A DNA stretch of 64,000 bases from the NCBI GenBank assembly GCA_964371245.1, contig CAYJKP010000003.1, forward strand, positions 8,986 through 72,985, written 5' to 3'. The stretch is from an uncultured Gammaproteobacteria bacterium (lineage in GTDB: Bacteria > Patescibacteriota > Patescibacteriia > JAHIZJ01). The translations under genes and the position numbers were made by a program. Under the pieces are notes generated by a model. It saw nothing but the letters and a program-made list of their open reading frames with translations. It was not told where the DNA came from and searched no databases. This document shows positions 11,976 through 29,811 of the stretch, piece by piece (within the stretch, counting starts at the first letter, position 1; the number at the start of each line of letters is the position of its first letter).

Positions 11976-14900
11976 TTGAAGAGCGGAAAGAGATCGCATC
12001 TCCTCAAAAAAACTAGAGTAACCGCAACACAGCGCACGACGCGGAAGAAGGTTTTAATATCACGAAAACAAGGTTGGAAGCAGTTGCATTCAGGGCAGCG
12101 ACTCCAAAAGGCTTTTGCCGGGGTCGCTGTTTTTGTACTCCTTGGTCTGGTCGTTTTCCTCGGCTGGAAAATGCTGCTCGTCCAAGCGGCCAGCGACACA
12201 GTTACATTAAATACCCGGGCGCAATGGGAAGCTGGTGAATTTTATCCCAACACAATCGACACAAAATCAACCGCCGACAGCCTGAAAATCCAATCCGGTT
12301 ATGTTGGCGACTGGGACAAAGGTACTCCTGGTTTCTATACCGATACGGCCGGATATGATTATTGGACCTATGACGGCGCTTCATACGGCGCGGACATGAC
12401 TACGGACGGCACTTATATTTACATGATTCCAGGCAACCGTCGGCCGTATCTTATCCGCTACAATCCCGAACTAAACACCTGGAAACAGCTGGCTAATGCG
12501 CCGACGGCTTTCTTTTACGGCGGTTCGATTGCCTACGACGCTTCCACCAAATCCATCTTCGCCATCGACGGCGGCGAACAGGTGGAAACCGGTACCGCCG
12601 GCAAACACATGTACAAATACGACATCGCGGCTGATGCCTGGAGCCGGGTCACTGATGCACCCGATGCTTGGGGATTGGGTTCTTCGATTGTCGCCGACGG
12701 GAACGGAACAATTTACGCTGTCCGCGGACGAAGTACGGACTCGCTCTGGGCATATGACATTAGCGAAGACGAGTGGGACGTTACTTTGCCAGCCCTGCCG
12801 ACGCCATATTTCGTTTATACGACCAATGGCCAGCCGCTGGAATATGTGAATGAACCGTATTCCGACGGCAACGGCGATCATTGCCTTTCTGGGTGTCTCT
12901 TTACGTTATATGGAAATAATAATCGGCAATTTTTCCGGTATGATATCGCCGAACGCCAATGGTATTACAATTCGCCGACCGATCTGACTATCCCGGCGGC
13001 CCTCGGTGGTGTCGGATACGGATCTTCGTTTGCCTACGATTCGACCAACGGAAATCTCTATTTACTGCACGGCAATCAGACCGCTTATTTTTCCAAATAT
13101 GACGTATCGGCATCGGATTGGGATGATGCCGCAGCCGATACCGCCGAAGCGCCCGGACCGGTGTACAACGGCGGAGTGGCCCTATATCTGGATGGATACG
13201 TTTACGCCCTCAAGGGTTATGGCGTACCTGATATGTGGCGCTACAAAGCTGATGACCCGGGCGGCAATGCCTGGGAGTCGATCTCTACTCCGGTCGCCAC
13301 CGGCAATGCCGGCGAAAACGGCCACATGGTGTTGGTTGATACGGATGCGAAGTGCGGCGGCGATGCTCCCTGTCTGTATATGCTCCGCGGCGCCAACACG
13401 AACACGTTCTGGATGTACACAGTCGACACAAAAACTTGGACCACCAATCTCAGCACTACAAACCTGGGCACGCTTCAGGCCGGGTCGTCGATGTGTTGGG
13501 ACGGGGATAATACGCTCTTTGTCCTGCGTGGCAACAATACTCTGAACTTTTACAGCTATAGTATTAGCGGCAACGCCTGGACCGCCCTGACCGATATTCC
13601 GAGTGACCATAGCGGGCCGGGCGACTACCCGGCTGGCGCCCAGACCGCTTATTACGGTGGCGGCCTGACCTGCGTCGGCACGACTGTCTATGCCATGAAG
13701 GGCGGCGCGAACGCCAATGGCTCAAACCATTTCTTCAAGTATTCAGCCGGCGCCTGGACACACCTGACTGTTCTGCCGCAGCGCGCCTATACCGGCGCCA
13801 AGCTGATCGGCGTTCCATATGATGCCGCCCACACCGAATACTGCGCCGACACGAACGGCTGCGTGTTCGCGCTAATGGGCAACCAGCGCGGTGATTTTTA
13901 CCGGTACGACGCCACGGCCAATGCCTGGACTATCCGTACCAGCCTGCCCACTGCAACCATCTACACCGCCTCCAGCGTCTATGATGAGAGCGGCCAGATC
14001 TATACCCTGTCATCCGACTACGACACGAGGATGTGGCGGTATGACATCGTGACCGATGTCTGGACCCGAACGGCTGATTTTCCGATGCGCAACGGATACA
14101 ACACTGCCATGGCTTATGACGCCGCGAACAACATTCTTTACGCCCAATTTGGCATGGCCACTTACCAAATTGCACGTTTTACTCCATCAAATGACAATTA
14201 TATATCATCCGCCACCTGGATCTCCGCGACCCAGGATCTCGACTATGTCTCAGCTTGGGAACAACTCACGGCCACACACGCAACCCCGGGCGGGTCGAGC
14301 GTTTCATTCGCCCTCCGCTCGAGTACGGACGAAGTGACCTGGTCGGATTGGGAAACGGTCGTGGACGGCGCGACCGGGGAATCAACCACCCAGGATCTGT
14401 CAGCTATTGCTACCACCGAGGCTCGGTATATCCAAATCAAAGTGACACTTACCTCTGACGGCACAAACACGCCGACCGTGAGCGACCTAGCTGCCACCTA
14501 TACAAAAGACGGAACCGCACCCTCAAATCCAACCATCACCGGCTACACGGACAGTTCGAAAGCAACCGGTATTACGAGCGGCACCACCTATTACTATACC
14601 AATCCATATTTTGAACTCTCGGGCGCCGCTGACGCGCATTCCGGCGTCGCCGGGTACTATGTGCGATGGTCAACCGAAGGTGACGATGATCCGGCGGCAA
14701 GCGAAGATTATTACCAAACCGGCGCTACCTTCGAAGTAAATACCGAGCTGACACCCGAGGAAACATATTACCTGCTGGTAAAAACCAAGGATAACGCCGG
14801 CAACGTATCGGCTGCTTCAGCCAGCTTCACGTATATATATTTCGGGATCCTCATTGCCGATGAAACACGGCAGATCTGGACGGCTGAAGCTGACTTTGAA

Positions 14901-17900
14901 ACACCCGGAACAACTGAGACAAACATCAATACTGAGGCCGGAACCGGAACATCAATGACGCTTGACGGGGTATCGCCGGGCACCTGGATGGATCTGCCGG
15001 CCACATATGGCATTGCGCCAGACAACCTGACCGCATACAATGATACCTCTATGACATATGACGGTGATGATACGATCTACGTGCTGCGGGCGGTAAATAG
15101 CAAGAAATTCTATTCCTATACGATCTCAAGTAAAACGTGGACAAATTTAACAGACATCGCCAGTACAAATAACGCCTATTACGGTGCCGTAATAGAGTAC
15201 GCCAGTGGTGCCGCGTATTGCCGAGATGATGACGACGATGTGACTGGAACAACAAAATGCGTTTATGCTTTACCCGGATCGAGTGTTAATCCGCCTTCCG
15301 GTGATACGTCGAAAGAATTCCTGCGGTATGATATCGACGGTACCGATGCGAATTCCTGGACCAGCCGGGCAGCTATTTCAGGTACTCTTTTATACGGTGC
15401 TGGCCTGGTCTGGAACGGCGGCGATTATCTGTTTGCCGAACGCGGATACAATCAGTCAAATTTTTACCGCTACAGCATCTCAACCAATACCTGGTCTGAC
15501 CGTGCCACACCGGATAACGCTTTTTATTACGGGTCCACGCTTGCTTTCGTACCGAACGGAACATACTGCGCTGACAGCCAGGGGTGCATTTTTGCCACCC
15601 GCGGCGCGGGTTCAGACCATTTCTGGCGATATGACGTCAACGCTAACTCATGGAGCTATCTGACCGCACCGCCCAACGCTTCAAGTTCAAAAGGGAATTA
15701 CGGCGCCACTTCCGTTTATCATGATGGCTATATTTATTTATCCGGCGGATACGCGGCCACTGACTTCATGAAATACAATATTTTGACTGATACGTGGACG
15801 CTGCTGGCCGATCTACCAGCCACTCATTATTTCGGATCGACTGGTGGTATGAGTTATTGCAGCGATACTGACACAATTTACATGCTGCGCGGCTACAGTG
15901 AATATAGTTTTTTCAGTTATGATGCGGTGAATGATAAATGGCGCAATCCGACCCTGCCACACGGCATGAGCTCGGCTGGTTTTAACTATGGCGGCCTTAC
16001 CCATGACAACGACGACACGCTCTATGTGGCACGCGGCGGGAATAACAACGACTTTTACCAATACACCGTCTCCACCCAAACCTGGAAACGACTGGCCAAT
16101 GTGCCGATGCGGATGTACTACACCTCGGACCTTGTGTATGTCGACGGATATGTCTACGCCCTAACGGGAACACCGCCCTACGCCGAGGGTGTGTCGCGCT
16201 TTTATCGCTATGATCCGACAACCGATTTATGGACGAGACTGAACGATACGCCAGCCACGGTCGGGTATGGAACAAGGCTCGTCTACGACGGTGATCATAC
16301 TATTTATACGGCGAGGGGTGCCGGTACAACAACCTATTATTCTTATGATCTTGACAATCCGGGCTGGTCGACACAGGCATCGACCGTGCCAGGTACGCTC
16401 ACCAACGGCGCCTGTGCCGTCATGACCGAAATCAGCGGCACAAAATATATTTACCAGATACGCTCGTCCAATACCTTAAACGTCTATCGTTGCACGCTCG
16501 ATCCTGATGAAGGGACGTGTACCTGGACAGCGCAGGGTCAGCCTGGCGACCCAACCGATGCGCCGGCCGGAACCGGGAGCATTAATGTCTATTATGGCGC
16601 CGCCTGTACGGTTAGCGACGGCAACATTTTTGTCCCGCGCGGCAATACGAATAATCTTGATTTCCTGGTGTATAACATCACCGGCGACTCCTGGACCACG
16701 CGATCGCTGAATAGTTTTTACTACGATGGCCGGATGGTGACCGGACCCGATGATATTCTGTATGGTTTTCGGGGTTACAATACCTCATCACTGGAACGAT
16801 ACGTTCAACAATCAGACACGACCAGTTTCGAACGCGTCGGCACCTGGACCTCGCAAATCATCGATGCTGGAAATATCTATGGTTTCAGCGGACTGACCGT
16901 CAATGATTCGACGGAAACAAATACCGCTCTGAAATACGAAACCCGAACCTGCGCTGACGCCGACTGCGCTGACGATGCCGACGATGAACACTGGTCTGAC
17001 TGGGACGAAGCGTCAAACGAAAAAACTGTAGGCTCGACCGACTACTATGCGGTTGATTCGACGCCGGCTCAGTATATCCAGGTAAAGATCACCTTTACCT
17101 CAGACCGCATTTACACCCCAACCCTCAACGACCTCACTCTAAGCTATTACTCAGACGGTGAAGCGCCGACAAACCCCGATAGTCTGACCGCAAAATCTCA
17201 AGCGGCGGGCGGGGTGGATATCACCACCGGCAATTGGTACGGCCATGCCGCGCCATACTTCTCGTGGTCTGGCGCGGCCGACAATGCCGGCGGTATCGGC
17301 ATCAAAGGCTATTGCGTGTATTTTGGCACGGACGACGACGCTGATCCGGCCGACGGCTGTACGCCCCAGACCGCTGCCACCTATACCGCCTCGGGTCTCG
17401 AAACCGGCCAGACGTATTATCTCCGCCTCAAGACCGTCGACCACATGGACAATACGACTGACGATATCTGGGCGCCCTTTACCTATAGTTATGACAGTGT
17501 TGCTCCGTCACGTCCGACGAACCTCCAGGCCAGCCCAGCCGTCCCCTCGGCCACCAACAGTTTCAATTTTACCTGGACCGCGGCCTCAGACTCCGGCGGC
17601 TCGCCCGCTTTTGAATATTGTTATCGACGCTACGTCAGCGAGGACGTGAAAGACGCCAACGACACATGCATTGCCAGCACAAATACCTCGCTGGCTGGCA
17701 TCGAAGCGCTCCAGGAGGGAACCAACTATCTGCAAATTCGTTCGAAGGATACGGCTAATAATTACTCAAACAACGGGGAATATGAGTCCGTCGCCTTCCG
17801 CTGGGCCCAGACCCCGCCGACGCTGCCCCAAAACGTCGAACACGGCGCTGTCGAGGGCGATGCCTATTCACACACTTTTGCCTGGGCAGAACCCGCCGAG

Positions 17901-20600
17901 CATGCTTTTGACATCAGTGCCTACTGCTATCAAATAAATGAGATACCGACCGCCAGTTATTGCAATAATAGCACCTATGGCCGCTGGACCACCTCGATCG
18001 AAACCAGCGCTCGTTTCTTAGCGGCTTTCCGCACGCCCAATACGCAGCCCGGCACGAATTATTTCTATATCGTCGCAAAAGACGAGGCCGGACTGGTTGA
18101 TTGGAACGCGACCTTTGACTGCGAGACTGGGCTGGGCTGCCTGGCATTTGAATCGGACACCATCTCGCCGAATACGCCACAGAGTTTTTCCCTCTCTGAC
18201 GCGTCAAATCGGGACGCCGAAAGCTATCGTTTGACGCTCGGCTGGACAAAGCCGGCGGATAACGAGGGCTCGGTCCTCTACAAATATAACATCTATCGCT
18301 CGACGGACGACGTCACCTATAGCCTCCGTGAAAGCATTCTCCATGTCGACGGTCAGGACGAGTACGCCTACACCGATGTCAGCCTCGACAATACGACCAC
18401 TTATTATTATAAAGTGACGGCGGCTGATTTAGCTGGGGCTGAATCTGATTATACGACCACCCTGTCACAGAAGCCGGAAGGAAAATACACCGAACCGCCC
18501 GACCTCGTCGGCAATCCATCAATTCAGCCGCGAATCCGTTCAGCCCTGATCGAATGGCTGACCGAGCCGTCAACCCACCCAGCCAGTTCGTTCGTCCAAT
18601 ACGGAACGACCACCGAGTACGGGGGCGAGCAAGGATCGTCCGATCTTGTCTCCAGCCATTCGGTGACGATTATCGATCTCGAGCCGGCAACAACGTATCA
18701 TTTTCGGCTGAAATGGGTCGACCAAGATGGTAATGTCGGCTATTCACCCGACTACACCTTTACCACGAACGATGCGCCGTCGCCACCGATCAATCTCACT
18801 GTTGATCCCGAATCAAACACGACAAATCGGTTTACTTTCGATTGGGATCCGCCAACTGACGAAGGCGTGACCATCAGCGGGTATTTCTATAGCATTAACA
18901 ATATTCCAACGGAAGAGAATACGAGCTTTGTTAGCGACTCGACCGTCGGTCCGATCGCAGCCGCCACTCAACAGGGCGTGAATACGTTCTACGTGATTGC
19001 CGTCGATGACGCCGGCAATACCAGCTACAGCAACTACGCCTCGACCGAGTTTGAAGTACACACCGCCGCGCCGGATCAACCACGTAACATCACAATTGTT
19101 GATTCCTCAGACCGGAATGCGCAGCGATATAATATCACGCTTACCTGGGATCCACCCCTGACCGCCGCCAGCGCAGACGAAGAAACCACTATCTACTATA
19201 CGATTTACCGCTCTGGAAACGGCGGCCGCTATTCCGAGATTGCTCGGGTCACGTCGACTGGCTATCTCGACACCGGATTAGACAATAGTGTCACTTATTC
19301 CTATAAAATTGTTGCTTCAGACAAGGCTGGCGCGACTTCAAAAGCCACCAATCCGGTGTCCGAAATACCCGAGGGCCGCTACACGGAACCGCCGGAGATT
19401 ACAAAAGATCCTGTTGCCGCCCCGGATTCCTATAGCGCCATCATTAGTTGGCGGACAGATCGTATTGCCTCTTCTTTTGTAGAATTTGGCCTGACGGAAA
19501 AACTCGGCGAGGAACAAGGTACTGCTGAGCAACTCGTCGACCACGATGTAACCGTTACCGGCCTGAAGCCGCTCACAAAATACTATTTTCGAATAAAAAG
19601 CATTGACGTCGACGAAAACGCCGCCTATTCAGAAACTGAATCGTTCACAACTCTTGAGGCGCCGCGCGTGGCTGAAGTCGTTATTACTGACGTTCGTCTT
19701 TTCGACGCCGTGATCACCTGGAAGACAAACAAAGAAACAACCACAATTATTGATTATGGAACGACGACGGACTACGGCCAAACCTATACCGATACCGGCG
19801 GTTCTTATACTTTCACCCACACCGTGAAGCTCGAACGGCTGACCGACGGCACCACCTACCACCTCCGGATGGCCGGTACGGATTCAAATAGTAATCCCGT
19901 CCAGTCCGACGATTACAGTTTTGCCACCCTGACGTTCCCGAAGATATCTGACGTCAGTTTCCAGAACAAGGCCGAGGGTGAGACCGAGGTTACCTGGAAG
20001 ACAAACGTACCGACCACCTCGACCGTCGAATATTGGGGCGATGTTATTCCTCCAAAAACACAGGGAAATACCGCGCTCGTTACCGAACACTCCGTCCTGC
20101 TCTTCGGTCTCGAGGACGCCACGGTCTACCAGGTGAAAATTCACGGCACCGACCAATTCAGCTATGAGGCGTTGAGTAACCAGCTCACCTTTACCACCCT
20201 TGAAGATACGACTCCGCCGATCATATCAAATGTTAAATCTGAATCAAACACCATCGGTTCGGGTGAAGCGTCAACGATTCAGATTGTTATTTCCTGGGTA
20301 ACCAACGAGAAATGCACTTCCAAAGTCGAATACGGAGAAGGGTTCTCTGACGCCTACAGCGGCGCCACGGATGAAAACGCCGAGCTCGTTTCTGAACATC
20401 TCATGGTCGTGACGAAACTGGCGCCGGCCCGGACGTACCATTTTCGGGTGGTTTCAACGGATAAGGCGGGGAACGAATCGAAGTCCGACGCTTATTCCGT
20501 CTTAACTTCCGTTAAGCGCCCTTCATTCCTCACTCAAATAGTTGATAATCTGGCGCAAACCTTCTCCTGGATAGGAAATATCGCTGATGTTTTCCGTTAA
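11976..20600 (+). CDS. giant cell-surface protein (2874 aa): N-terminal membrane anchor, many Kelch-type propeller blades, jelly-roll modules, FN3 and PAP-N-like FN3 tandem repeats
   Basis: TTG start; hydrophobic anchor AFAGVAVFVLLGLVVFLGW; >20 repeats of the Kelch pattern FxRYDxxxxxWT...P; two copies of a module ending AxYIQxKxTxTSDxxxTPTxxDL; FN3-like segments; five C-terminal YGTTTEYG...TYHFRL repeats. Confidence 0.8.
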   Translation: MKSGKRSHLLKKTRVTATQRTTRKKVLISRKQGWKQLHSGQRLQKAFAGVAVFVLLGLVVFLGWKMLLVQAASDTVTLNTRAQWEAGEFYPNTIDTKSTADSLKIQSGYVGDWDKGTPGFYTDTAGYDYWTYDGASYGADMTTDGTYIYMIPGNRRPYLIRYNPELNTWKQLANAPTAFFYGGSIAYDASTKSIFAIDGGEQVETGTAGKHMYKYDIAADAWSRVTDAPDAWGLGSSIVADGNGTIYAVRGRSTDSLWAYDISEDEWDVTLPALPTPYFVYTTNGQPLEYVNEPYSDGNGDHCLSGCLFTLYGNNNRQFFRYDIAERQWYYNSPTDLTIPAALGGVGYGSSFAYDSTNGNLYLLHGNQTAYFSKYDVSASDWDDAAADTAEAPGPVYNGGVALYLDGYVYALKGYGVPDMWRYKADDPGGNAWESISTPVATGNAGENGHMVLVDTDAKCGGDAPCLYMLRGANTNTFWMYTVDTKTWTTNLSTTNLGTLQAGSSMCWDGDNTLFVLRGNNTLNFYSYSISGNAWTALTDIPSDHSGPGDYPAGAQTAYYGGGLTCVGTTVYAMKGGANANGSNHFFKYSAGAWTHLTVLPQRAYTGAKLIGVPYDAAHTEYCADTNGCVFALMGNQRGDFYRYDATANAWTIRTSLPTATIYTASSVYDESGQIYTLSSDYDTRMWRYDIVTDVWTRTADFPMRNGYNTAMAYDAANNILYAQFGMATYQIARFTPSNDNYISSATWISATQDLDYVSAWEQLTATHATPGGSSVSFALRSSTDEVTWSDWETVVDGATGESTTQDLSAIATTEARYIQIKVTLTSDGTNTPTVSDLAATYTKDGTAPSNPTITGYTDSSKATGITSGTTYYYTNPYFELSGAADAHSGVAGYYVRWSTEGDDDPAASEDYYQTGATFEVNTELTPEETYYLLVKTKDNAGNVSAASASFTYIYFGILIADETRQIWTAEADFETPGTTETNINTEAGTGTSMTLDGVSPGTWMDLPATYGIAPDNLTAYNDTSMTYDGDDTIYVLRAVNSKKFYSYTISSKTWTNLTDIASTNNAYYGAVIEYASGAAYCRDDDDDVTGTTKCVYALPGSSVNPPSGDTSKEFLRYDIDGTDANSWTSRAAISGTLLYGAGLVWNGGDYLFAERGYNQSNFYRYSISTNTWSDRATPDNAFYYGSTLAFVPNGTYCADSQGCIFATRGAGSDHFWRYDVNANSWSYLTAPPNASSSKGNYGATSVYHDGYIYLSGGYAATDFMKYNILTDTWTLLADLPATHYFGSTGGMSYCSDTDTIYMLRGYSEYSFFSYDAVNDKWRNPTLPHGMSSAGFNYGGLTHDNDDTLYVARGGNNNDFYQYTVSTQTWKRLANVPMRMYYTSDLVYVDGYVYALTGTPPYAEGVSRFYRYDPTTDLWTRLNDTPATVGYGTRLVYDGDHTIYTARGAGTTTYYSYDLDNPGWSTQASTVPGTLTNGACAVMTEISGTKYIYQIRSSNTLNVYRCTLDPDEGTCTWTAQGQPGDPTDAPAGTGSINVYYGAACTVSDGNIFVPRGNTNNLDFLVYNITGDSWTTRSLNSFYYDGRMVTGPDDILYGFRGYNTSSLERYVQQSDTTSFERVGTWTSQIIDAGNIYGFSGLTVNDSTETNTALKYETRTCADADCADDADDEHWSDWDEASNEKTVGSTDYYAVDSTPAQYIQVKITFTSDRIYTPTLNDLTLSYYSDGEAPTNPDSLTAKSQAAGGVDITTGNWYGHAAPYFSWSGAADNAGGIGIKGYCVYFGTDDDADPADGCTPQTAATYTASGLETGQTYYLRLKTVDHMDNTTDDIWAPFTYSYDSVAPSRPTNLQASPAVPSATNSFNFTWTAASDSGGSPAFEYCYRRYVSEDVKDANDTCIASTNTSLAGIEALQEGTNYLQIRSKDTANNYSNNGEYESVAFRWAQTPPTLPQNVEHGAVEGDAYSHTFAWAEPAEHAFDISAYCYQINEIPTASYCNNSTYGRWTTSIETSARFLAAFRTPNTQPGTNYFYIVAKDEAGLVDWNATFDCETGLGCLAFESDTISPNTPQSFSLSDASNRDAESYRLTLGWTKPADNEGSVLYKYNIYRSTDDVTYSLRESILHVDGQDEYAYTDVSLDNTTTYYYKVTAADLAGAESDYTTTLSQKPEGKYTEPPDLVGNPSIQPRIRSALIEWLTEPSTHPASSFVQYGTTTEYGGEQGSSDLVSSHSVTIIDLEPATTYHFRLKWVDQDGNVGYSPDYTFTTNDAPSPPINLTVDPESNTTNRFTFDWDPPTDEGVTISGYFYSINNIPTEENTSFVSDSTVGPIAAATQQGVNTFYVIAVDDAGNTSYSNYASTEFEVHTAAPDQPRNITIVDSSDRNAQRYNITLTWDPPLTAASADEETTIYYTIYRSGNGGRYSEIARVTSTGYLDTGLDNSVTYSYKIVASDKAGATSKATNPVSEIPEGRYTEPPEITKDPVAAPDSYSAIISWRTDRIASSFVEFGLTEKLGEEQGTAEQLVDHDVTVTGLKPLTKYYFRIKSIDVDENAAYSETESFTTLEAPRVAEVVITDVRLFDAVITWKTNKETTTIIDYGTTTDYGQTYTDTGGSYTFTHTVKLERLTDGTTYHLRMAGTDSNSNPVQSDDYSFATLTFPKISDVSFQNKAEGETEVTWKTNVPTTSTVEYWGDVIPPKTQGNTALVTEHSVLLFGLEDATVYQVKIHGTDQFSYEALSNQLTFTTLEDTTPPIISNVKSESNTIGSGEASTIQIVISWVTNEKCTSKVEYGEGFSDAYSGATDENAELVSEHLMVVTKLAPARTYHFRVVSTDKAGNESKSDAYSVLTSVKRPSFLTQIVDNLAQTFSWIGNIADVFR

Positions 20601-20650: not shown

Positions 20651-21484
20651 TTGCCATGTCGCTTTATGCCCGAACTTGCCACATCAACGCCAGTCGCTAA
20701 ACCCGAATCCGCGCCCGTCGCTTCAGAGGACAAAGTCGCTTTGAGCGACCTTGGCGGTGACTCCGGCGAATCGCTGGCCGATCAATCATCGTTTAAAAAA
20801 CCGATCATTAAGCTCGAAAACGTAACCAAGAGCTTTCGGGTCGGCAACGAGTGGGTAAAAATCATAAAAAATATCAGCCTGGAAATTTTTCCGCGGGAGT
20901 TTGTTGTCATCCTCGGCCCGTCGGGCTGCGGCAAATCGACTCTCTTAAACACCCTCCTGGGCCTCGAGAAGCCGACCTCGGGAAAAGTCATCGTCCGCGG
21001 CCACGACATTACCAACTACAGCCTTGACCAGCTGGCTCAGTTCCGTTTAAAGAAGTATGGCGTCGTCTACCAGCGCCCGGATTGGATACGCTCGATGAAT
21101 GTCATTGAGAATGTGGCCCTACCTCTGGCGATTACCGATATTCCTCGAAAATACCGCCTGGCGCGTGCGATGGAGCTTCTCCGCAAGCTGAAAATCGACC
21201 ACCGCGCCTACTATAACCCGACTGAACTGTCCGGCGGGCAGCAGCAGCGCGCCGTCATTGCCCGTGCGCTGATCAATAATCCCTGGATTGTCGTGACTGA
21301 CGAGCCAACCGGAAATCTCGATAGCGAATCGGCCGAAAACGTGATTAGTATTTTTAAATCGTTAAACGAAGATTCAAAACGGACGATCATTATGGTTACG
21401 CATAATATTGAATACGTCCATGTCGCTTCCCGGACAATCTACATGCGCGACGGTGAAATCCTGAATCAGAAAATTAATATCTAA
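20651..21484 (+). CDS. ABC transporter ATP-binding protein (FtsE/MacB-like) with acidic N-terminal extension
   Basis: [37 protein letters not shown]; ~45-aa low-complexity N-terminus. Confidence 0.85.
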   Translation: MPCRFMPELATSTPVAKPESAPVASEDKVALSDLGGDSGESLADQSSFKKPIIKLENVTKSFRVGNEWVKIIKNISLEIFPREFVVILGPSGCGKSTLLNTLLGLEKPTSGKVIVRGHDITNYSLDQLAQFRLKKYGVVYQRPDWIRSMNVIENVALPLAITDIPRKYRLARAMELLRKLKIDHRAYYNPTELSGGQQQRAVIARALINNPWIVVTDEPTGNLDSESAENVISIFKSLNEDSKRTIIMVTHNIEYVHVASRTIYMRDGEILNQKINI

Positions 21485-21486
21485 CC

Positions 21487-22683
21487 ATGCGCTTTAGTTA
21501 CATTGTCTTTCTCGCCACTAATAGCCTGCGAAAACGAAAACTGCGAAGTTTCTTGACGATCGGCGGAATGGTCGTCGGCATTAGCGCGATTGTTTTTCTC
21601 GTCTCGCTTGGCTTCGGTTTGCAGAAACTTCTGAAAGAGCGGGTGACGAACATCGAAGCGCTGACGATTCTCGAAGTCAGTACTGGCGAATCGACCTTGC
21701 TCAAGATAGATAAGCGGGCAACTGATGGCTTCAAATCGATTCCGAACGTTATCGACGTCAGTCCGTCGGTCAGTATTTCCGGCCAAGCGCTATTCAAAAA
21801 CGCCGGCACGGACATTGCCGTCTTTGGCGTCAATCCCAGCTATGTCGGCATTGAAGGGATCCGGTTAGTCGATTCTGGCCGCACGCTCAACGAAGACGCG
21901 AAAGACGAAGCGCTTCTGACTACCACCGCGCTCGAACTGCTTGGCATCACAAACAATCAGGATGTGCTCGGGCAAACCATTCGTCTCAAGGTATTTGTCA
22001 CCGACCCCGAGTCTGAAACCGGCGAGCAGATTTCAGAAGACGTCAGCGTTAAAGTTGTCGGAGTGATTGAAGACGCCGAACTCAGCATCGCGTACGTTCC
22101 GTTGAGCCTGATCGAGCCGTTTGGCATCAAGCAGTATAATACCGCCAAGGTGAAAGTGACGGAACGGTCCAAACTCGAAGATGTTCGCATCCGCATTGAA
22201 AACCTGGGTTATCAGGTTGATTCGCTCGCCGATACGGTCGGCCAAATTGATCAAATTTTCATCGTCTTCCAGATTATCATGGGTGGCTTCGGATTAATCG
22301 CCATGTTTGTCGCGTCACTCGGCGCTTTTAATACCTTAACCGTTTCCTTGTTAGAACGTACCCGTGAAGTCGGTATTATGAAAGCGCTTGGTTCAACCCG
22401 GAAAGATATCTATCGGCTTTTTTTGACTGAGTCGTGGCTGATCGCCGTGACTGGCGGTCTGCTCGGCGTTACGGTCGGCTGGGCCAGCGGGGCGCTGGCG
22501 AACGTCGGCTTGAATTATCTGGCACAACGGTTTGGTGGCGAGCCAGTGAGCGTTTTCTATACGCCCTGGCTCTTCGTGGCTGGGATGATTGTACTGGCTC
22601 TTCTGATCGGTTTCCTGACTGGTGTCTATCCCGCCCGACGCGCCTCGAGCTTGAATCCGCTCGACGCCCTGCGGTACGAATAA
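21487..22683 (+). CDS. MacB/FtsX-type ABC transporter permease
   Basis: N-terminal TM, ~230-aa extracytoplasmic domain, C-terminal FtsX three-helix bundle (GIMKALGSTRKDI). Confidence 0.75.
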   Translation: MRFSYIVFLATNSLRKRKLRSFLTIGGMVVGISAIVFLVSLGFGLQKLLKERVTNIEALTILEVSTGESTLLKIDKRATDGFKSIPNVIDVSPSVSISGQALFKNAGTDIAVFGVNPSYVGIEGIRLVDSGRTLNEDAKDEALLTTTALELLGITNNQDVLGQTIRLKVFVTDPESETGEQISEDVSVKVVGVIEDAELSIAYVPLSLIEPFGIKQYNTAKVKVTERSKLEDVRIRIENLGYQVDSLADTVGQIDQIFIVFQIIMGGFGLIAMFVASLGAFNTLTVSLLERTREVGIMKALGSTRKDIYRLFLTESWLIAVTGGLLGVTVGWASGALANVGLNYLAQRFGGEPVSVFYTPWLFVAGMIVLALLIGFLTGVYPARRASSLNPLDALRYE

Positions 22684-22726: not shown

Positions 22727-22801
22727 TGGTAGCCCCACGGGGAATCGAACCCCGATTATCGGCTTGAAAAGCCGGTGTCCTAACCGTTAGACGATAGGGC
22801 C
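22727..22801 (-). tRNA. tRNA-Glu (anticodon TTC), CCA encoded
   Basis: Reverse complement GGCCCTATCGTCTAACGGTTAGGACACCGGCTTTTCAAGCCGATAATCGGGGTTCGATTCCCCGTGGGGCTACCA folds as a cloverleaf; anticodon loop TTTTCAA; very similar to bacterial tRNA-Glu. Confidence 0.85.
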
Positions 22802-22890: not shown

Positions 22891-23880
22891 ATGAAAATCC
22901 TCGCCCTCGAAACATCCTGCGACGACACCGCGGTCAGCGTTGTTGAGATAACACCACGAGCGACACGCGTGTTATTTGAAGTGGCCTCGTCCCAAGTAAC
23001 TACGCACGCGAAATACGGCGGGATCGTGCCCGAGGTGGCTGCCCGTATGCATTGCGAAAACATCGGACCGATTATCAGAGAGGCCTTGCAATGGCATTCA
23101 CCCGACACCATCGATCGGATCGCTGTCACCGCCGGCCCGGGACTCATCACGTCGCTCCTGATCGGTGTTGAAACCGCTAAAACGCTCGCCTACGCTCTCC
23201 GGAAGCCAATTATTGCTGTCCATCACGTTGAGGGGCATATATACTCGTCGCTCATCAAGAATCGGCGGGTTCGGTTTCCGGCTCTCGCCCTGATCGTCTC
23301 CGGTGGCCACACTGACATTATTCTGATGACTGGCTTTGGCCAATACCAGATCGTCGGCCGAACCCAAGACGACGCGGCCGGTGAAGCGTTTGATAAGGTC
23401 GCCAAACTCCTTCGCCTCGGCTACCCGGGTGGCCCGATCATTCAAGCGCGCGCCCGGCGCGGCCGGCCAGCGGCTTTCGCCCTCCCGCGTCCGATGCTGG
23501 AGCAAAAGAATTTCGATTTTAGTTTTGCTGGTCTAAAAACAGCGGTTCTCTATCTCTATCAATCGGGAAAAATTCCGAGCTCGAAAATCAATAATCTCTG
23601 CGCTTCTTTTCAGCAAGCCGTGGTTGACGTTTTGGTGACAAAAACGCTACGGGCAGCGGAGAAATATGGCGTCAAAACAATCCTCTTGGGTGGTGGCGTT
23701 GCCGCAAACACGCTTCTGCGCGCAACCCTGACAAAAGAAGCAAATCGACGGGGATACGCTTTCCGTATGCCCACGCTGTTTCATTCAACCGATAACGCCA
23801 CGATGATCGCTCAGGCAGCCTACTACCGAAAACCAACGCCGTGGCAGCGTATAAAAGCTGATCCGAACCTTCCGCTGTAA
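22891..23880 (+). CDS. tsaD: tRNA N6-adenosine threonylcarbamoyltransferase TsaD (Kae1/Gcp family)
   Basis: MKILALETSCDDTAVSVV..., metal-binding HHVEGH, ASKH-fold length 329 aa. Confidence 0.9.
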   Translation: MKILALETSCDDTAVSVVEITPRATRVLFEVASSQVTTHAKYGGIVPEVAARMHCENIGPIIREALQWHSPDTIDRIAVTAGPGLITSLLIGVETAKTLAYALRKPIIAVHHVEGHIYSSLIKNRRVRFPALALIVSGGHTDIILMTGFGQYQIVGRTQDDAAGEAFDKVAKLLRLGYPGGPIIQARARRGRPAAFALPRPMLEQKNFDFSFAGLKTAVLYLYQSGKIPSSKINNLCASFQQAVVDVLVTKTLRAAEKYGVKTILLGGGVAANTLLRATLTKEANRRGYAFRMPTLFHSTDNATMIAQAAYYRKPTPWQRIKADPNLPL

Positions 23881-24033
23881 TAATCTACAAACACCCGGGC
23901 AATTATTACCGCTCCAGAAATCCCCTAAAGCGATTTGCTAACTGGGGTGGCCAATGTTTGCGCTTTACGCGCTCATCAAGTACAATAAAAGCGCCTGAAA
24001 ATGGTGTTTTTTACTAGTCCGGACAAAAGTTTT

Positions 24034-26706
24034 ATGCCGACCGAAATCCCAAAAGCCTACGATCCAAAAACAGTCGAGCAGGATTTGTATAAAGCCTGGA
24101 AAGAATCAGGGTATTTTAATCCTGACAAGCTCCCGGGCAAGCGGACAGAGGCATACTCAATTGCCATGCCTCCTTTTAACGTCACCGGCATCCTTCATAT
24201 TGGCCACGCGGTTTTGCTGGCGCTCCAAGATATTATGATTCGTTTCGAACGTATGCGCGGGAAAAAAACGCTCTGGTTGCCCGGCACCGATCACGCCGCT
24301 ATCGCCACCCAGAATGTCGTCGAACAAGAATTGAAAGAGGAGGGGAAAACAAAATATGATCTCGGACGCGAACAGTTTTTCGAACGCGTGACGCGTTTCG
24401 CCGATTCGCAGCACGGCCGTATCGTCGAACAGATTTCCCGGATGGGTGCGAGCTGCGACTGGTCGCGGGAACGGTTTACTCTCGATGCCGGACTGTCTAC
24501 AGCTGTCACTTCGGCCTTTACGACGCTATACGACGACGGTCTGATTTACCGTGGTGACCGGATTGTAAACTGGTGTCCGCGCTGCCAGTCCACGCTGGCC
24601 GACGATGAAGTGGAATACAAAGAAAAAAAGACACCCTTCTACTATTTCAAATACGGGCCGGTTATTATCGGCACCGCCCGACCGGAAACAAAATTCGGCG
24701 ATAAGGTCATTGTCGTCCATCCCGACGACAAACGATACGCAAAACTGGTTGGTACTTCTTTCGAGGTCGAGTGGATCCTCGGACCAATCACCGCCCGCGT
24801 CATCGCCGATCCGGTTGTTGACCCGGAGCTGGGCACCGGCGCCATGACGATTACGCCCGGACACAGTTTTGAGGATTTTGCGCTGGCGCAAAAATACGGC
24901 CTGCCGATTGAAAAAATAATAGATGAAAGCGGACACCTGACCGAGGCCGCTGGCCCGATGAAGGGCTTGCCTGTCAAAGAAGCTCGGAAAAAGGTGGTCG
25001 AGGCTCTTGAGAAAAAGGGCTTGCTTGATCATATCGACGAAAATTATACTCATAACCTTTCGGTCTGCTATCGTTGCGGCACGCCCATCGAGCCCCTGGT
25101 CTCACGCCAATGGTTTCTGGCCGTCGATAAACCGGCTAAGCGACTTGGGAATAAGACCCTGAAGCAGCGCGCCTTGGAAGTGGTTGAAAATAATGAGATT
25201 GCGTTTGTACCCGACCGTTTTACGAAAGTGTACCGGCACTGGATGGAGAATCTCCACGACTGGTGCATCTCGCGCCAGATCTGGTACGGACACAAGATAC
25301 CAATTTGGTATTGCGAAGATTGCCACAAGGATCCGAAAAAATACCAGTCTGGTGAATATTATTGGCTGCCAGAAGAAAATACCCCGACCGCCTGTCCGCG
25401 CTGCCACGGCCAAGACATCCATCAGGACCACGATACTCTCGACACCTGGTTTTCTTCGGGCTTATGGACGTTTTCCACGCTCGGCTGGCCGATAACTAAA
25501 GACATGGGCTTTGACGCGTCATTAGTTGAACTGGTGAAATCCGGGAAAAAGACAAAAACGTTTCGTCTGCGTGACCATAATCTGTCGGCTGGAGAAACAT
25601 GTCTGACGCACGACAGTAAAACGAAAAATAAGTTCGGCTATTTGCGCATTGTTAGTTCGATCAAAATTTCGTTCAGCGAAATTGCGCTCCAAGCAGCCGG
25701 ACACGAACCGTATAAAAGCCAAGCGGAATTGAAAAAAACGTTTCAAAAATACTACCCGGACACGGTAATAACGCCGGAAACGCCGGTCTGGGTGTATGAA
25801 TTTGTCTTTCAAAAAGAATCTGATTTGGAGCAATTCCACCCTACCTCAATCCTGGAAACTGCTTACGACATTATCTTTTTCTGGGTGGCGCGAATGATCC
25901 TCATGTCCACCTATCTGGTCGGCAAGATCCCGTTCAAAACCGTGTATCTCCACGGCTTGGTGCGTGACAAAAAGGGACGGAAGATGTCTAAATCGCTCGG
26001 CAATGGCATTGACCCACTGGAGATGGCCGACAAATACGGGGCAGACGCGGTGCGACTCGCGCTCGTCATCGGTACGACGCCAGGGAACGATCAAAAACTC
26101 GACGAACAGAAGATTGCCGGCTTTCGCAACTACGTTAATAAGGTCTGGAATATCGGCCGGTTCATTGCCCTTCAGAGCGCGGATAAAAAACCCGGGAAAC
26201 CAAAAACGGAAACACTGGCCGACAAATGGATTATCAGCCGTTTGCATACTATTATTCGTGACCATTCAACGCATCTGGAAAAATTCGAGTTTTCCCAGGC
26301 GGGTGAAAAAATATACGACTTTGCCTGGCATGAATTCGCCGATTGGTACCTGGAAATAACGAAACTAGAGGGCAATGTGGCCCTGGCCCATCAGGTGTTT
26401 GGTGAAATCTTAAAACTTCTTCATCCCTATATGCCCTTTGTCACGGAAGTGCTCTGGCAACAGCTTGATTACGATAAAGATTTGCTCATGATTCAGAAGT
26501 GGCCGACGTCCGACCAGTCAAAATACAATCCTGAGGCGGAGAAAAAGTTTGCCGAACTCCAACAGACTATCACCGAATACCGCCGGCAGCGGAAGGAGTC
26601 AGGTGCCCCGGCCGGGCAAGCCATATCCGTACCTGTGCCGACTGGCTTAGCCGAAGAGCTTAAACCGATTATTGAGCGCCTGGCAAAAGTAACATTTACG
26701 ACTTAG
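24034..26706 (+). CDS. valS: valine--tRNA ligase with an inserted ASCH (YqfB-like) domain
   Basis: [20 protein letters not shown] start; HIGH as HIGHA; [8 protein letters not shown]; ~110-aa insertion between TLGWP and [20 protein letters not shown] (alt. start ATG 24001). Confidence 0.85.
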   Translation: [890 protein letters not shown]

Positions 26707-26707
26707 T

Positions 26708-27880
26708 ATGTCCTATCGTGGCGAACATGGATTTCCGCACTTAAGCATTGAGGCGATGGAACGCGACCTGTCTGATGTTGAGTATGACGTATCTAATGTC
26801 CTGGCTTCCCCGTATAAAAAACGGCAGCCGCAGCATGACCGCCTCGTTCAGGAACATGGCGGTCTGTCTCCGTATGAACCGGAAGAGCTCGCTGCGGACC
26901 GCCGCACCATCATTGATCTGGGACGCCGCGATCAGACTGAAGATACCGTCCGCGGGCGTATTCTGGAAGCGTTTCTGGCTGAACACGCTCCCACGCTGGG
27001 CTGGTTTGGGCCTGAGTCTCATGCGGTAACCACCTGCGAATACGACAATCGGTGCAACGCCACAGACATGGTATTGACTTTGCCGGGGAAAGACGGCCAA
27101 CCGGCGCACCTGGCGATTGACGTTACGACGGCCACCAGCGGGGGCGCCCTGTCAGAAAAGCAACACTGGCTGAAGCAGTCGCTTGAAACCGGGGAACTGA
27201 CGAGTTTGAAGTATTACTTTGACGCCACCGAACCGGTGATCGGCGTCCGGCGCCTGGAACATATCCCGCGGGTGGTCATCGGCTTGCCGGCGGATGCGGT
27301 CGGCGAATTATGTAAGCTGTTGGAGCCTTATTTGAAATCCGGCCAGCGCCATACCGGGGAAGTAAATCTGCGCGAACACCCGCTCAAAGAAGAATTAATC
27401 AGTTCAACGGTGTCACAGCTGGAGCAACAGATTCTTTTCCTTGTGGTCCATTATTTTGAGCTCATTTCCAAACGCGATCCGCACGGAACCTGCGTGTATA
27501 TCACAAAAACGCGACTGCCTGAACAATTTGAGCAGTTTTCCAAATTGATCCATTCCCTTACTGAAGTAATGTTAACATCCGATCCTGCCAGCGTAACCAA
27601 GCGCCTGCCACTACTAACGCAATCGGTCGAAGTATTGGAATCGCTCGGCAAACGTTTTCAGGTAGATTTTCCCCTGGGGCAATGCGTACGTAAAATTAGT
27701 GAGATTCGCGACTTGCTGGCTTCCTCCCGGCCAAATGAAAAAGGTTCCGAAAAACGCATTAGCGATCCCGGAACCGAGGCGGTCCGTTTGTCGGACCGTG
27801 AATGGACACGTGCTGATGATCATGGCTTTACCCCCTGGTTTCGTCGCGCCGCAGAACTCGTAGAGCTCGAGCAGCGATAG
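26708..27880 (+). CDS. hypothetical acidic protein, no recognisable domain
   Basis: 390-aa ORF, GC-richer than neighbours, no TM segments or known motifs. Confidence 0.55.
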   Translation: MSYRGEHGFPHLSIEAMERDLSDVEYDVSNVLASPYKKRQPQHDRLVQEHGGLSPYEPEELAADRRTIIDLGRRDQTEDTVRGRILEAFLAEHAPTLGWFGPESHAVTTCEYDNRCNATDMVLTLPGKDGQPAHLAIDVTTATSGGALSEKQHWLKQSLETGELTSLKYYFDATEPVIGVRRLEHIPRVVIGLPADAVGELCKLLEPYLKSGQRHTGEVNLREHPLKEELISSTVSQLEQQILFLVVHYFELISKRDPHGTCVYITKTRLPEQFEQFSKLIHSLTEVMLTSDPASVTKRLPLLTQSVEVLESLGKRFQVDFPLGQCVRKISEIRDLLASSRPNEKGSEKRISDPGTEAVRLSDREWTRADDHGFTPWFRRAAELVELEQR

Positions 27881-28104: not shown

Positions 28105-29811
28105 TTATTCGGCCACTCGAAAGACTTCGTCGAGACTGGTAATACCATCCAGGGCTTTGAGCAGGCCATCTTGAACGATGGTAATCATGCCGTTTTTCAC
28201 CGCCGCATCTTGAATGGCATATTCCGAGACCTGACCGCTGAGAATTATTTTCTCAATGTCAGGATTCATCATCATGACTTCGTAAATACCCGTCCGGCCT
28301 TTTAAGCCGAGGTGATGACACGCGTCGCAGCCCGTGCCCTTATAGAATTTAAGGGAGTTAAGATCAACGCGATATCCTGAATTTTCAGGTATTTTGCCTA
28401 AATTGTCCTTTGCTTTGGCCAGCTCTTCTTCAGTCGGTGTATATTCAGCCTTGCACTTATCGCATACCCGTCGGACCAGCCGTTGGGCCATAATCGCATT
28501 CAGTGCTGGCGCTAAGAGAAATGGTCGGGCGTCGAGGGCCATAAACCGAGGAATTGTCCCGGCGGCACCATTGGTATGGACGGTCGATAACACTAAATGG
28601 CCGGTGAGCGCGGCTTGGATCGCGATCTCGGTCGTTTCAGCGTCCCGGATTTCACCAACCATGACGATATCGGGGTCTTGCCGGAGAATCGCCCGCAAAC
28701 CCTTGGCGAACGTATACTCCCGGCTGGAATCAATCTGGCTTTGGCTGATGCCGGGGAGTTTGTACTCGACCGGGTCTTCTAAGGTAATAATTTTCGTTTC
28801 CGGACGATTGAGAAGATTGAGAATGGCATAAAGGGTGGTGGTTTTACCGGAACCAGTCGGACCGGTCGTGATGATCATTCCGTTCGGGCGTTTCACCTCT
28901 TTTTTCAGTTGCTCGTAGGCTATGCCTCGGATACCGAGCTGATCAAAGGCCAGCGCGGTCGCTGACGAATGGAGGAGGCGCATTACCACGCTTTCGCCAT
29001 AGGCGGTGGGCAGAGTCGAAACGCGGATATCAATTTTTTCGTCTTGCATCGCCACGGTAATTCGGCCATCCTGCGGCACGGTCGTGATATTCATCTTCAG
29101 TTTCGCCATGAGCTTAATTCGACTGATAATCTTCGGCCAGCGCTCCGGCGGCATTGCGGCCACGTCATATAATACGCCGTCAATCCGAAAGCGGACTTTT
29201 ATCTCATGCTCTTGCGCCTCGACGTGGATATCCGATGAGCCGGCGTTAATAGCCGAGGCAAGAATCATGGTAAACACCTCAGTCAGCGAGCCAGACTTTA
29301 TCTGGGCGTCAAGCGTCTGAAAATCTGTTATCCGCTGCTTAAACTGGTCAATGTCAGCTTGGCTGATTTCGAGATCGCGCGATACCATCTTCACCTTCAC
29401 CACGCGATCGTAGTGTTTTAAGGCCCACTGCCAGCTATCTTCTGAAATAAGGTAGAGTTCGACCTTGCCCTGGAATTTCTGGGCGAGCCGCTGGAGAATC
29501 TGATCAAGGCCGGCCGCTTGCGGCTCGACAACACCCACTCGTACGCCGCTCGACCCCTGATAAAATGCTATGATCCGGCAATCTTTTGCCTCGGTTTCTG
29601 TTATCAGGGAAATGATATCCGGGCTGATCGGATAGCCCCGCAGGCTGATATACGGCAAACCTAAATCCTGGGCCCGTTGTCGGGTCGCTCGTTCTTGCTC
29701 CCGGACGTCGATTTCTTTCATTTTGTCCTGGAGCTTGTCGGTCGCCGTTACTTTTTTCTGGGCGGCCTTTGATTGACGCAATAAATCTTCGATCGATTGG
29801 GTATCAGCCAT
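28105..29811 (-). CDS. pilB: type IV pilus assembly ATPase PilB (GspE family)
   Basis: 568 aa; GspE N-terminal domain; Walker A GPTGSGKTT; tetracysteine zinc motif CDKCK...CDAC. Confidence 0.85.
   Translation of the reverse strand: MADTQSIEDLLRQSKAAQKKVTATDKLQDKMKEIDVREQERATRQRAQDLGLPYISLRGYPISPDIISLITETEAKDCRIIAFYQGSSGVRVGVVEPQAAGLDQILQRLAQKFQGKVELYLISEDSWQWALKHYDRVVKVKMVSRDLEISQADIDQFKQRITDFQTLDAQIKSGSLTEVFTMILASAINAGSSDIHVEAQEHEIKVRFRIDGVLYDVAAMPPERWPKIISRIKLMAKLKMNITTVPQDGRITVAMQDEKIDIRVSTLPTAYGESVVMRLLHSSATALAFDQLGIRGIAYEQLKKEVKRPNGMIITTGPTGSGKTTTLYAILNLLNRPETKIITLEDPVEYKLPGISQSQIDSSREYTFAKGLRAILRQDPDIVMVGEIRDAETTEIAIQAALTGHLVLSTVHTNGAAGTIPRFMALDARPFLLAPALNAIMAQRLVRRVCDKCKAEYTPTEEELAKAKDNLGKIPENSGYRVDLNSLKFYKGTGCDACHHLGLKGRTGIYEVMMMNPDIEKIILSGQVSEYAIQDAAVKNGMITIVQDGLLKALDGITSLDEVFRVAE

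Follow-up and report, generated by a model that had tools for sequence, protein, structure and literature searches.

The window analysed here, a stretch of 64,000 nucleotides (nt) of contig CAYJKP010000003.1, encodes a functional, single-copy valyl-tRNA synthetase (ValRS) of the Patescibacteria (candidate phyla radiation, CPR) that carries within its own polypeptide a complete 106-residue ASCH domain of the YqfB type. An earlier note, made from the letters of this DNA, had proposed an ASCH domain inside ValRS, and a Pfam PF04266 match, the modelled fold and a clean 318-nt in-frame indel confirm it. The domain is an exchangeable accessory cassette, dispensable among close relatives, and not part of the aminoacylation machinery. 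Because it has an apparently full catalytic set, is under purifying selection and belongs to a subfamily repeatedly placed in RNA-binding translation proteins, we favour, with moderate confidence, the reading that the cassette works as an N4-acylcytidine amidohydrolase on tRNA that is bound to the synthetase or in transit through it. Several lines of evidence bear on this proposal.

First, the insertion is sharply delimited. The cassette interrupts a surface loop that leads from the DTWFSS...TLGWP helix to the Rossmann strand after it (FHPTS...GYD), and the elements that define this setting are:

24001–26706, plus strand: valS, valine–tRNA ligase of 901 amino acids (aa), host of the insertion (open reading frame (ORF) listing, NCBIfam and Pfam)
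25312–25404, plus strand: ValRS zinc knuckle, here called site A, empty in the window ValRS (CEDC, aa 438–441; CPRC, aa 465–468)
25432–25491, plus strand: conserved 20-residue helical segment directly before the insertion point (model helices 482–486 and 489–492)
25493–25810 (318 nt), plus strand: ASCH (YqfB-like) cassette, 106 codons in frame, at what is here called site B (gap against locus L034, Pfam, AlphaFold2, Foldseek, and the ratio of non-synonymous to synonymous substitution rates, dN/dS)
25811–25872, plus strand: native loop remnant (K)ESDLEQ and the 12 residues that follow, the Rossmann β-strand after the insertion (model strand 615–621)

The motifs TLGWP (aa 493–497) and FHPTS (aa 612–616) are 114 residues apart in the window ValRS, compared with 8 in most of the 120 closest ValRS, which bears out the expansion of about 110 residues after TLGWP that the earlier note had described. 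The identical spacing of 114 is found in five homologues, which come from independent assemblies (JGI, NCBI, ENA and Logan), and in all remaining homologues with both motifs locatable the gap is at most about 36. Aligned at the DNA level to the nearest insert-free orthologue (L034, protein P0003), the window shows one clean 318-nt indel at 25493–25810, ±1 nt; removing it in silico leaves a 13-residue junction, to be compared with WP-KKTKDLET-FHP in the insert-free relative. The interval first proposed for the domain, 25491–25836, thus covers the insert but also takes in about 9 native loop residues. Nor is the segment the ordinary zinc knuckle, which is a separate element upstream.

By Pfam and by the model, the insert is fully explained by one ASCH domain. 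No direct or inverted repeats bracket the junctions at 25493 and 25810, and direct reading of the junctions themselves (WP/ITKD and VF(Q)/K) finds no intein-type Cys/Ser/Thr...His-Asn residues. With no bracketing repeats and no splice-junction residues, and with the ASCH domain making up the whole insert, we rejected a mobile element, whether intein, transposon or intron. The insert is indeed more AT-rich than its host, as had been noticed, with a GC content of 0.437 against 0.512 in the rest of valS and a third-codon-position GC of 0.49 against 0.59. This places it in the lowest 3% of same-size windows within valS, but over the full 64 kb 15% of the windows are equally low, and AT-richness was dropped as a sign of foreign origin, being too weak alone.

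Second, profile and structure comparisons identify the insert as an ASCH domain. The Pfam ASCH profile (PF04266) matches aa 502–601 over profile positions 1–99 of 103, and its score exceeds the gathering score of 21.2 both when the whole protein is searched (30.8 bits) and when the segment is taken by itself (35.2 bits, E = 2e-8). An AlphaFold2 model of the insert, computed from 19 embedded homologues, has a mean predicted local distance difference test score (pLDDT) of 92.5 and the element order E-H-E-E-E-H-E (E, strand; H, helix). The full-length model repeats these secondary-structure elements, with 10-residue pLDDT blocks of 88–96, and places them between helices 482–492 and the Rossmann strand 615–621 on linkers of a few residues, so that an independent β-barrel, which the earlier note had suggested looking for, is seen in the model both alone and in context. 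In a Foldseek search of the PDB, the top matches to the insert model were to Escherichia coli YqfB (9kyf/9kyh; E = 3.9e-8 to 7e-8, template-modelling (TM) score 0.71–0.82, root-mean-square deviation 2.4 Å), and all 17 chains at E ≤ 1e-3 are ASCH proteins (9kyf, 1t62, 3s9x, 5y6b, 2z0t, 5guq, 1s04 and others).

Sequence support for YqfB in particular depends on the profile used. A PDB search with the single insert sequence returned PH0355 only (E = 0.03), a profile of ValRS-embedded copies found YqfB at a non-significant E of 0.15, and only a profile of the window clade with its closest standalone relatives (A4) was significant, matching YqfB over its full length at E = 7e-9. In hhalign, the insert clade/standalone profile and YqfB aligned with 95.4% probability, and the alignments to YqfB that had been drawn by eye (a 16-residue block and ELKK...YP) were reproduced by the profile alignments. 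The insert and E. coli YqfB (PDB 9KYF/1TE7; NF003443) thus share a length of about 103–106 aa, the same β-barrel, the Thr-type octapeptide GxKTxTxR with its Lys, Thr and Arg and, in the stronger profile alignments, a matching Glu and Tyr89–Pro90. They differ in being only about 18–19% identical, in charge (isoelectric point (pI) 4.5 for the acidic YqfB, 8.6 for the basic insert) and in context, YqfB being a free monomer and the insert, known from sequence and model, being embedded within another enzyme.

Third, the window copy appears to retain the residues on which YqfB catalysis depends. Mutagenesis of YqfB identified Lys21 as base, Thr24 as nucleophile, Glu74 as acid and Arg26 as oxyanion hole, with His70 and Tyr89 contributing to substrate binding; the K21A, T24A and R26A variants were inactive and E74A lowered the turnover number 100- to 1000-fold (PMC6972931). 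The corresponding elements of the insert are:

25543–25566, plus strand: octapeptide GKKTKTFR, aa 515–522; K517, T520 and R522 correspond to YqfB Lys21, Thr24 and Arg26
25702–25707, plus strand: H568–E569 in the GHEPY loop; E569 aligns with YqfB Glu74 (hhalign and hmmsearch)
25753–25758, plus strand: Y585–P586 in KYYPD; Y585 aligns with YqfB Tyr89

The octapeptide GKKTKTFR matches the ASCH motif GxKxxT/ExR as defined in a recent preprint (10.64898/2026.02.27.708502). K517, T520 and R522 are in register with YqfB in three independent profile alignments, and the Glu loop moves by one residue in the weaker alignment, that of the embedded-copy profile (E = 0.15), so that the pairing of E569 with Glu74 is provisional. 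The position of YqfB His70 is Ala in the insert, with a His two residues later. All seven members of the window clade keep this set of aligned Lys, Thr, Arg, Glu and Tyr.

A census of 162 domain copies places this set in a wider frame. Among standalone copies (n = 79), Lys21 is present in 75, Thr24 in 76, Arg26 in 78, the Glu in 65 and Tyr89 in 76; among ValRS-embedded copies (n = 51), the counts are 48, 51, 51, 10 and 22, respectively, so that no positions of the embedded domain are more invariant than Thr and Arg. The embedded copies have also gained conserved K23, R28, H30 and Y103 (the last in 51 of 51), which standalone relatives do not have, and the median pI is 8.7 for embedded and fused copies against 5.9 for standalone copies.

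Fourth, the insert is under strong purifying selection, with a dN/dS of 0.06 between the window and L001, a contig of the Patescibacteria metagenome-assembled genome (MAG) SO_2017_LW4_167 that is 89.6% identical to the window in nucleotides over 8.3 kb, and of 0.09 between the window and L002. Its genealogy disagrees with that of the host gene. Nucleotide identity between the window and L001 is 0.777 in the insert and 0.899 in the rest of valS; the corresponding values are 0.780 and 0.669 for the window and L002, and 0.770 and 0.679 for L001 and L002. In amino acids, the window and L002 are 77% identical in the insert and 71% in the host core. The insert also holds an excess of the synonymous differences that separate the window from L001 (46.5 of 69 sites, versus 172 of 532; Fisher P = 8e-8).

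The longest contiguous low-identity block between these two sequences (0.71–0.83) spans 25489–25848 and coincides with the insert; the flank upstream of it is at 0.94–0.96. Shorter divergent patches occur outside the insert, at 26164–26298, 25264–25398, 28324–28458 and 28864–28998 among others, and for this reason the whole locus is a mosaic between the window and L001.

Fifth, the cassette is gained or lost between close relatives. Cassette-bearing ValRS do not group together in a neighbour-joining tree built from the host core, and several of them, among these P0004, P0002, the pair of the window and P0001, P0057 and P0025, are sister to an insert-free enzyme; this tree, like the domain tree below, is without support values and indicative only. 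Host-core identity is 90% between P0004 (with insert) and P0010 (without), 85% between P0002 (with) and P0005 (without) and 79% between the window and the insert-free P0003, compared with only 65–72% among the three insert-bearing hosts themselves. The loci of P0004 and P0010 share the gene order of the window (ABC, FtsX, tsaD, valS, a gene of unknown function and pilB), and the insert-free sisters, syntenic orthologues 85–90% identical in the core, are of equal length minus the cassette. Read most simply, these patterns reflect either homologous recombination in the highly conserved flanks, by which the cassette was exchanged, or precise losses that happened repeatedly.

We also considered whether the insert makes up for something that the enzyme has lost. 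The C-terminal coiled-coil tRNA-binding arm (PF10458) has no Pfam match in the window ValRS. Because many insert-free CPR ValRS also lack PF10458 and some ASCH-bearing ones keep it (about 8 of 18, counted from Pfam matches), its absence here is unrelated to the insert, and compensation for loss of the coiled coil was rejected. Compensation for another loss was rejected as well, the insert-free sisters having the same length minus the cassette.

Sixth, the same insertion recurs in other Patescibacteria, whose ValRS the earlier note had suggested surveying, and the subfamily extends to further hosts. A first screen of the 120 closest ValRS found ASCH at site B in 6 and at site A, inside the zinc knuckle after DWCISRQ...WY, in 17; the stricter count used for the host tree gives 6 and 13. 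At site A, the ASCH or, in other CPR ValRS, a His_Phos_1 domain lies after WY(C) and before the second CxxC in the homologue alignment. When GTDB species representatives were scanned for KTKT[FY]RLRD, a search that catches exact-motif copies only and so gives lower bounds, at least 30 loci were found. Of these 30, 25 are in ValRS of diverse CPR (Moraniibacteriota, Levybacteria, Roizmanbacteria, Curtissbacteria, Saccharibacteria, Berkelbacteria, Nomurabacteria, Colwellbacteria and others), 10 at site B and about 15 at site A, the latter including a Saccharibacteria MAG (L006); the other 5, in DPANN archaea, encode ribosomal protein L32e with a C-terminal ASCH domain. Further copies lie in leucyl-tRNA synthetase (LeuRS) directly before the CP1 editing domain (P0151, aa 243–345; P0220, aa 277–377), in the N-terminal region of FtsY (P0192, aa 172–277) and in fusions with NUDIX (P0122), His_Phos_1 (P0131, 282 aa) and an S4-domain protein (P0159). 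RNA binding is common to LeuRS, FtsY, L32e, the S4-domain protein and ValRS, the last being a host at two sites. In the rough domain tree, the window clade stands apart, and site-A copies and fusions enclose a further set of site-B copies (Levybacteria and others), which suggests that the domain may have moved between sites and hosts.

Most relatives stand alone. An exhaustive phmmer search of 1.84 billion representatives with the insert returned 114 relatives at E ≤ 1e-3, mostly standalone proteins of about 110 aa. A word-indexed homology search with the insert alone found nothing, and with the 19-sequence profile it found short standalone proteins only, and thus cannot serve as a count of architectures. 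Closest to the insert in sequence, at up to 43% identity, are standalone ASCH proteins of about 113 aa from CPR and DPANN metagenomes (such as P0121, P0123, P0132 and P0234–P0244), with E down to 4e-14 for the single sequence and 1e-40 for the profile. Like the insert, they have the K-T-x-T-x-R motif, the GHE loop and YYP, but they are free proteins with the low pI given above and without the ValRS-specific K23, R28, H30 and Y103.

Several further observations concern these families. The L32e–ASCH genes of the KTKTYRLRDH subfamily (L004, 3623–4348; L009, 3521–4333; L013, 1922–2752; also L010 and L014) belong to Aenigmatarchaeota and to archaeon GW2011_AR5. His_Phos_1 (PF00300) is carried by 14 of the 120 closest CPR ValRS, including P0014 (aa 436–585), P0095 (438–601) and P0024 (440–578), and in these three, which were examined, it occupies the zinc-knuckle site A, where other ValRS hold ASCH; the core of P0095 is 90–91% identical to the insert-free P0102 and P0120. 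The two domains are also linked outside ValRS, in the fusion P0131 and as adjacent genes 28 nt apart (L031, 5443–5973 and 6001–6345). Two standalone ASCH genes (that of L031, and L032 at 785–1129) lie just upstream of dnaK–dnaJ, one of them in a grpE...dnaK heat-shock neighbourhood beside a PCMT-type methyltransferase. P0021 has a second domain of about 130 aa with a GSKTVELR motif (aa ~440–570; ASCH-like by eye, no Pfam match) before its site-A ASCH, and P0065 has, besides a site-B ASCH, a site-A insert of about 150 aa (aa ~430–595), also with no Pfam match. Three MAG contigs labelled 'uncultured Gammaproteobacteria' (L011, L018 and L022) encode CPR-type ValRS with an ASCH cassette and are probably misassigned CPR bins.

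Action on modified cytidines in tRNA and provision of an extra tRNA contact are the two leading functional hypotheses for the insert. Under the former, which we favour, Lys517 of the window-clade cassette would serve as base, Thr520 as nucleophile and Glu569 as acid, Arg522 would provide the oxyanion hole and Tyr585 would bind substrate, making the cassette a metal-independent N4-acylcytidine (N4-acetylcytidine (ac4C)-type) amidohydrolase. ValRS would supply the tRNA-targeting role, and the tethered domain could then act on cytidines of synthetase-bound tRNA, or on nearby tRNA fragments or nucleosides, giving a built-in 'eraser' or repair activity coupled to charging. According to a 2026 preprint, each of the 19 ASCH proteins assayed could strip ac4C from tRNA, activity required Lys and Thr/Glu, and a fused tRNA-binding domain can provide the substrate affinity of ASCH (10.64898/2026.02.27.708502). 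The archaeal tRNA ac4C deacetylases Afu3ASCH and Pku4ASCH in that preprint resemble the window protein in joining ASCH and a separate tRNA-binding element in one polypeptide. In those enzymes the tRNA binder is a small C-terminal helix–turn–helix (HTH), whereas here it would be a whole synthetase with ASCH internal, and they are among the assayed proteins, whereas the window domain is known from sequence and model.

Several points weigh against this reading. In bacteria, ac4C is known only at C34 of elongator tRNA-Met and not in tRNA-Val. The topology of a Rossmann fold puts the insertion loop at the sheet edge that faces away from the active site, and contact of ASCH with the tRNA 3′ end in the synthetic site is therefore unlikely. 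The domain falls far short of the NCBIfam YqfB equivalog NF003443 (24.4 bits for the segment and 19.7 for the whole protein, against a cut-off of 93), and because of that score it is a YqfB-like ASCH domain rather than a YqfB orthologue. Within the embedded family, the acid Glu is gone from 41 of 51 ValRS copies and Tyr89 from 29 of 51, mainly at site A, and in three copies, the site-A copy of P0012 among them, Met replaces the catalytic Lys. Judged by sequence, many sister insertions are probably poor catalysts that have nevertheless been retained, and the retention of Glu- and Tyr-poor copies argues that binding alone may suffice. Finally, YqfB has been treated as a non-nucleic-acid-binding protein (10.64898/2026.02.27.708502), and the human ASCH protein EOLA1 is assigned to salvage of free ac4C in another 2026 preprint.

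These points lead to the other leading hypothesis, that the cassette is a non-catalytic RNA-binding module, its PUA-like ASCH barrel providing an extra contact to tRNA or structured RNA. The old active-site pocket may then hold a flipped-out cytidine (for instance C74/C75 or a D/T-loop base), and in organisms whose translation machinery is reduced the contact would make tRNA binding tighter or more specific. This is a serious rival, although we consider it on the unlikely side. It would account for embedded domains that are kept despite the loss of Glu, Tyr89 and, three times, Lys. The conserved basic and aromatic residues that these copies gained, their higher pI and the RNA-binding nature of the partners (ValRS, LeuRS, L32e, S4 and FtsY) agree with it, as does the general description of PUA/ASCH domains as binding RNA and being associated with translation (PMC7641849). 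The window clade, however, appears to retain every YqfB catalytic residue, and the positions corresponding to nucleophile Thr24 and oxyanion-hole Arg26 are the most invariant of all. Close relatives also function without the insert and with no compensating change in length, its presence is uncorrelated with loss of PF10458, and ASCH alone did not bind tRNA but needed an added HTH (10.64898/2026.02.27.708502).

A catalytic domain need not act on tRNA. The cassette might instead serve nucleoside or nucleotide salvage, deacetylating free ac4C or N4-acylcytidines scavenged from host RNA, its location in valS merely securing expression in a tiny genome; we regard this as doubtful. CPR bacteria do rely on nucleotide scavenging, and a salvage enzyme could well be dispensable among close relatives, as the cassette is. 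Nucleotide-processing partners (NUDIX in P0122 and His_Phos_1 in P0131) and the ASCH gene directly after His_Phos_1 in L031 point the same way. The best substrate of YqfB is free ac4C nucleoside, with a kcat/Km of about 2.8e6 M−1 s−1 (PMC6972931), and the salvage role given to EOLA1 also fits. Salvage nevertheless leaves unexplained why the domain is placed recurrently in RNA-binding translation proteins rather than in any highly expressed gene, and why embedded copies show a basic shift and new conserved surface residues; co-expression could also be had from a terminal fusion or an operon at less cost than by insertion inside a catalytic fold.

It is very improbable that the domain is a single-stranded-RNA ribonuclease, as reported for the ASCH protein of Zymomonas mobilis (ZmASCH), working on tRNA 3′ ends or fragments. 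ZmASCH (5y6b/5guq), whose ribonuclease activity is cited (as reference 14) in PMC7641849, is among the Foldseek matches (E = 2e-5 to 5e-4, TM about 0.63), but YqfB is clearly the better match by fold and sequence, the insert of about 106 aa is YqfB-like and without roughly 40 extra residues of ZmASCH, its conserved motif is the Thr-type GxKTxTxR of YqfB amidohydrolases, and a nuclease joined to an essential tRNA-binding enzyme would be hazardous. Hardly more credible is a functionless or selfish insertion, an artefact of assembly or frameshift, or an ordinary zinc-knuckle or loop region: patchy presence in close relatives, somewhat lower GC and discordant genealogy would fit, but the in-frame insertion with its 114-residue spacing recurs in five proteins from independent assemblies, which refutes an artefact of assembly or frameshift, and the low dN/dS (0.06–0.09), the confident fold, the lack of terminal repeats or mobile-element signatures and the separate, upstream zinc knuckle stand against the rest.

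The tRNA-directed amidohydrolase that we favour would sit in a host enzyme that is complete in its synthetase parts. The window holds one copy of valS, and its product scores 932 bits against the NCBIfam equivalog NF004349 (cut-off 704) and 890 bits against TIGR00422 (cut-off 612). Pfam matches tRNA-synt_1, broken into two stretches with ASCH between them, and Anticodon_1; the anticodon-binding PF08264 match covers aa 741–877. Every invariant column of a 71-sequence ValRS alignment is kept in the window ValRS, and the full-length model has a pLDDT of 90.8 and a predicted TM score of 0.87. The class I signatures, placed by motif position, are:

24196–24207, plus strand: HIGH signature of the class I active site, aa 66–69; H66, G68 and H69 invariant in the 71-sequence alignment
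25981–25995, plus strand: KMSKS signature, aa 661–665; K661, S663, K664 and S665 invariant

Around valS, a 390-aa ORF with no Pfam match begins 2 nt past the valS stop (26708–27880, plus strand); genes of similar size follow valS at the syntenic loci L035 (395 aa) and L034 (419 aa), and it may be a conserved uncharacterised operon partner. Upstream, a giant ORF of 2,874 aa (11976–20600, plus strand) encodes Kelch repeats with fibronectin-III/Ig-like domains, probably a cell-surface protein, and is followed by a MacB-like ABC/FtsX pair (20651–22683), tRNA-Glu (22727–22801, minus strand) and tsaD (22891–23880).

ASCH domains, ValRS and the theme of domain additions to synthetases are all known already. 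Database records of these ValRS carry only the generic annotation 'class I tRNA ligase family protein', and the literature that we searched contains no description of an ASCH domain in an aminoacyl-tRNA synthetase, consistent with the suggestion of the earlier note that the arrangement had not been described. What is unusual here is a cassette-like distribution over multiple sites and multiple hosts, shared with a histidine-phosphatase domain. Other class Ia synthetases likewise carry an added hydrolytic or acyl-chemistry domain in their polypeptide, as in CP1 editing or in isoleucyl-tRNA synthetase (IleRS) with a GNAT domain, an architecture recognised by NCBIfam as NF040702, 'isoleucine--tRNA ligase, N-acetyltransferase domain-containing'. 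The window enzyme differs from these in that its added domain is an ASCH, placed in a helix-to-strand loop of the second Rossmann half, or in the zinc knuckle in other CPR ValRS, and in that the cassette is present or absent among close relatives instead of universal.

A more speculative extension, to which we give only a slender chance, is that ASCH and the His_Phos_1 domain of the neighbouring site are interchangeable 'tRNA repair or anti-toxin' cassettes that spread between CPR valS and leuS alleles by homologous recombination through conserved flanks. Shortly before or after charging, ASCH would then undo acyl damage on the tRNA of its own synthetase; the damage could be ac4C, or N-acetyl-aminoacyl-tRNA produced by GNAT-type toxins that hosts, phages or competitors deploy. 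If true, aminoacyl-tRNA synthetases would have a new form of quality control acting in cis and separate from CP1 editing.

The proposal that ASCH proteins are the missing N4-acetylcytidine erasers is recent, and it raises the question of how such small enzymes reach their RNA substrates. An apparently catalysis-competent ASCH domain wired into a synthetase would be a ready-made test case of substrate targeting by tethering, as would the sister chimeras in LeuRS, L32e and FtsY, and the L32e fusion would put a putative ac4C-eraser-like domain on the ribosome. A tRNA-directed amidohydrolase in ValRS would add a new class of accessory activity to the bacterial aminoacyl-tRNA synthetases. More broadly, CPR ValRS appears to be a hot spot for the gain, loss and swap of enzyme domains, ASCH and histidine phosphatase, among close relatives, and as such is a tractable system for how essential enzymes tolerate or exploit domain insertion.

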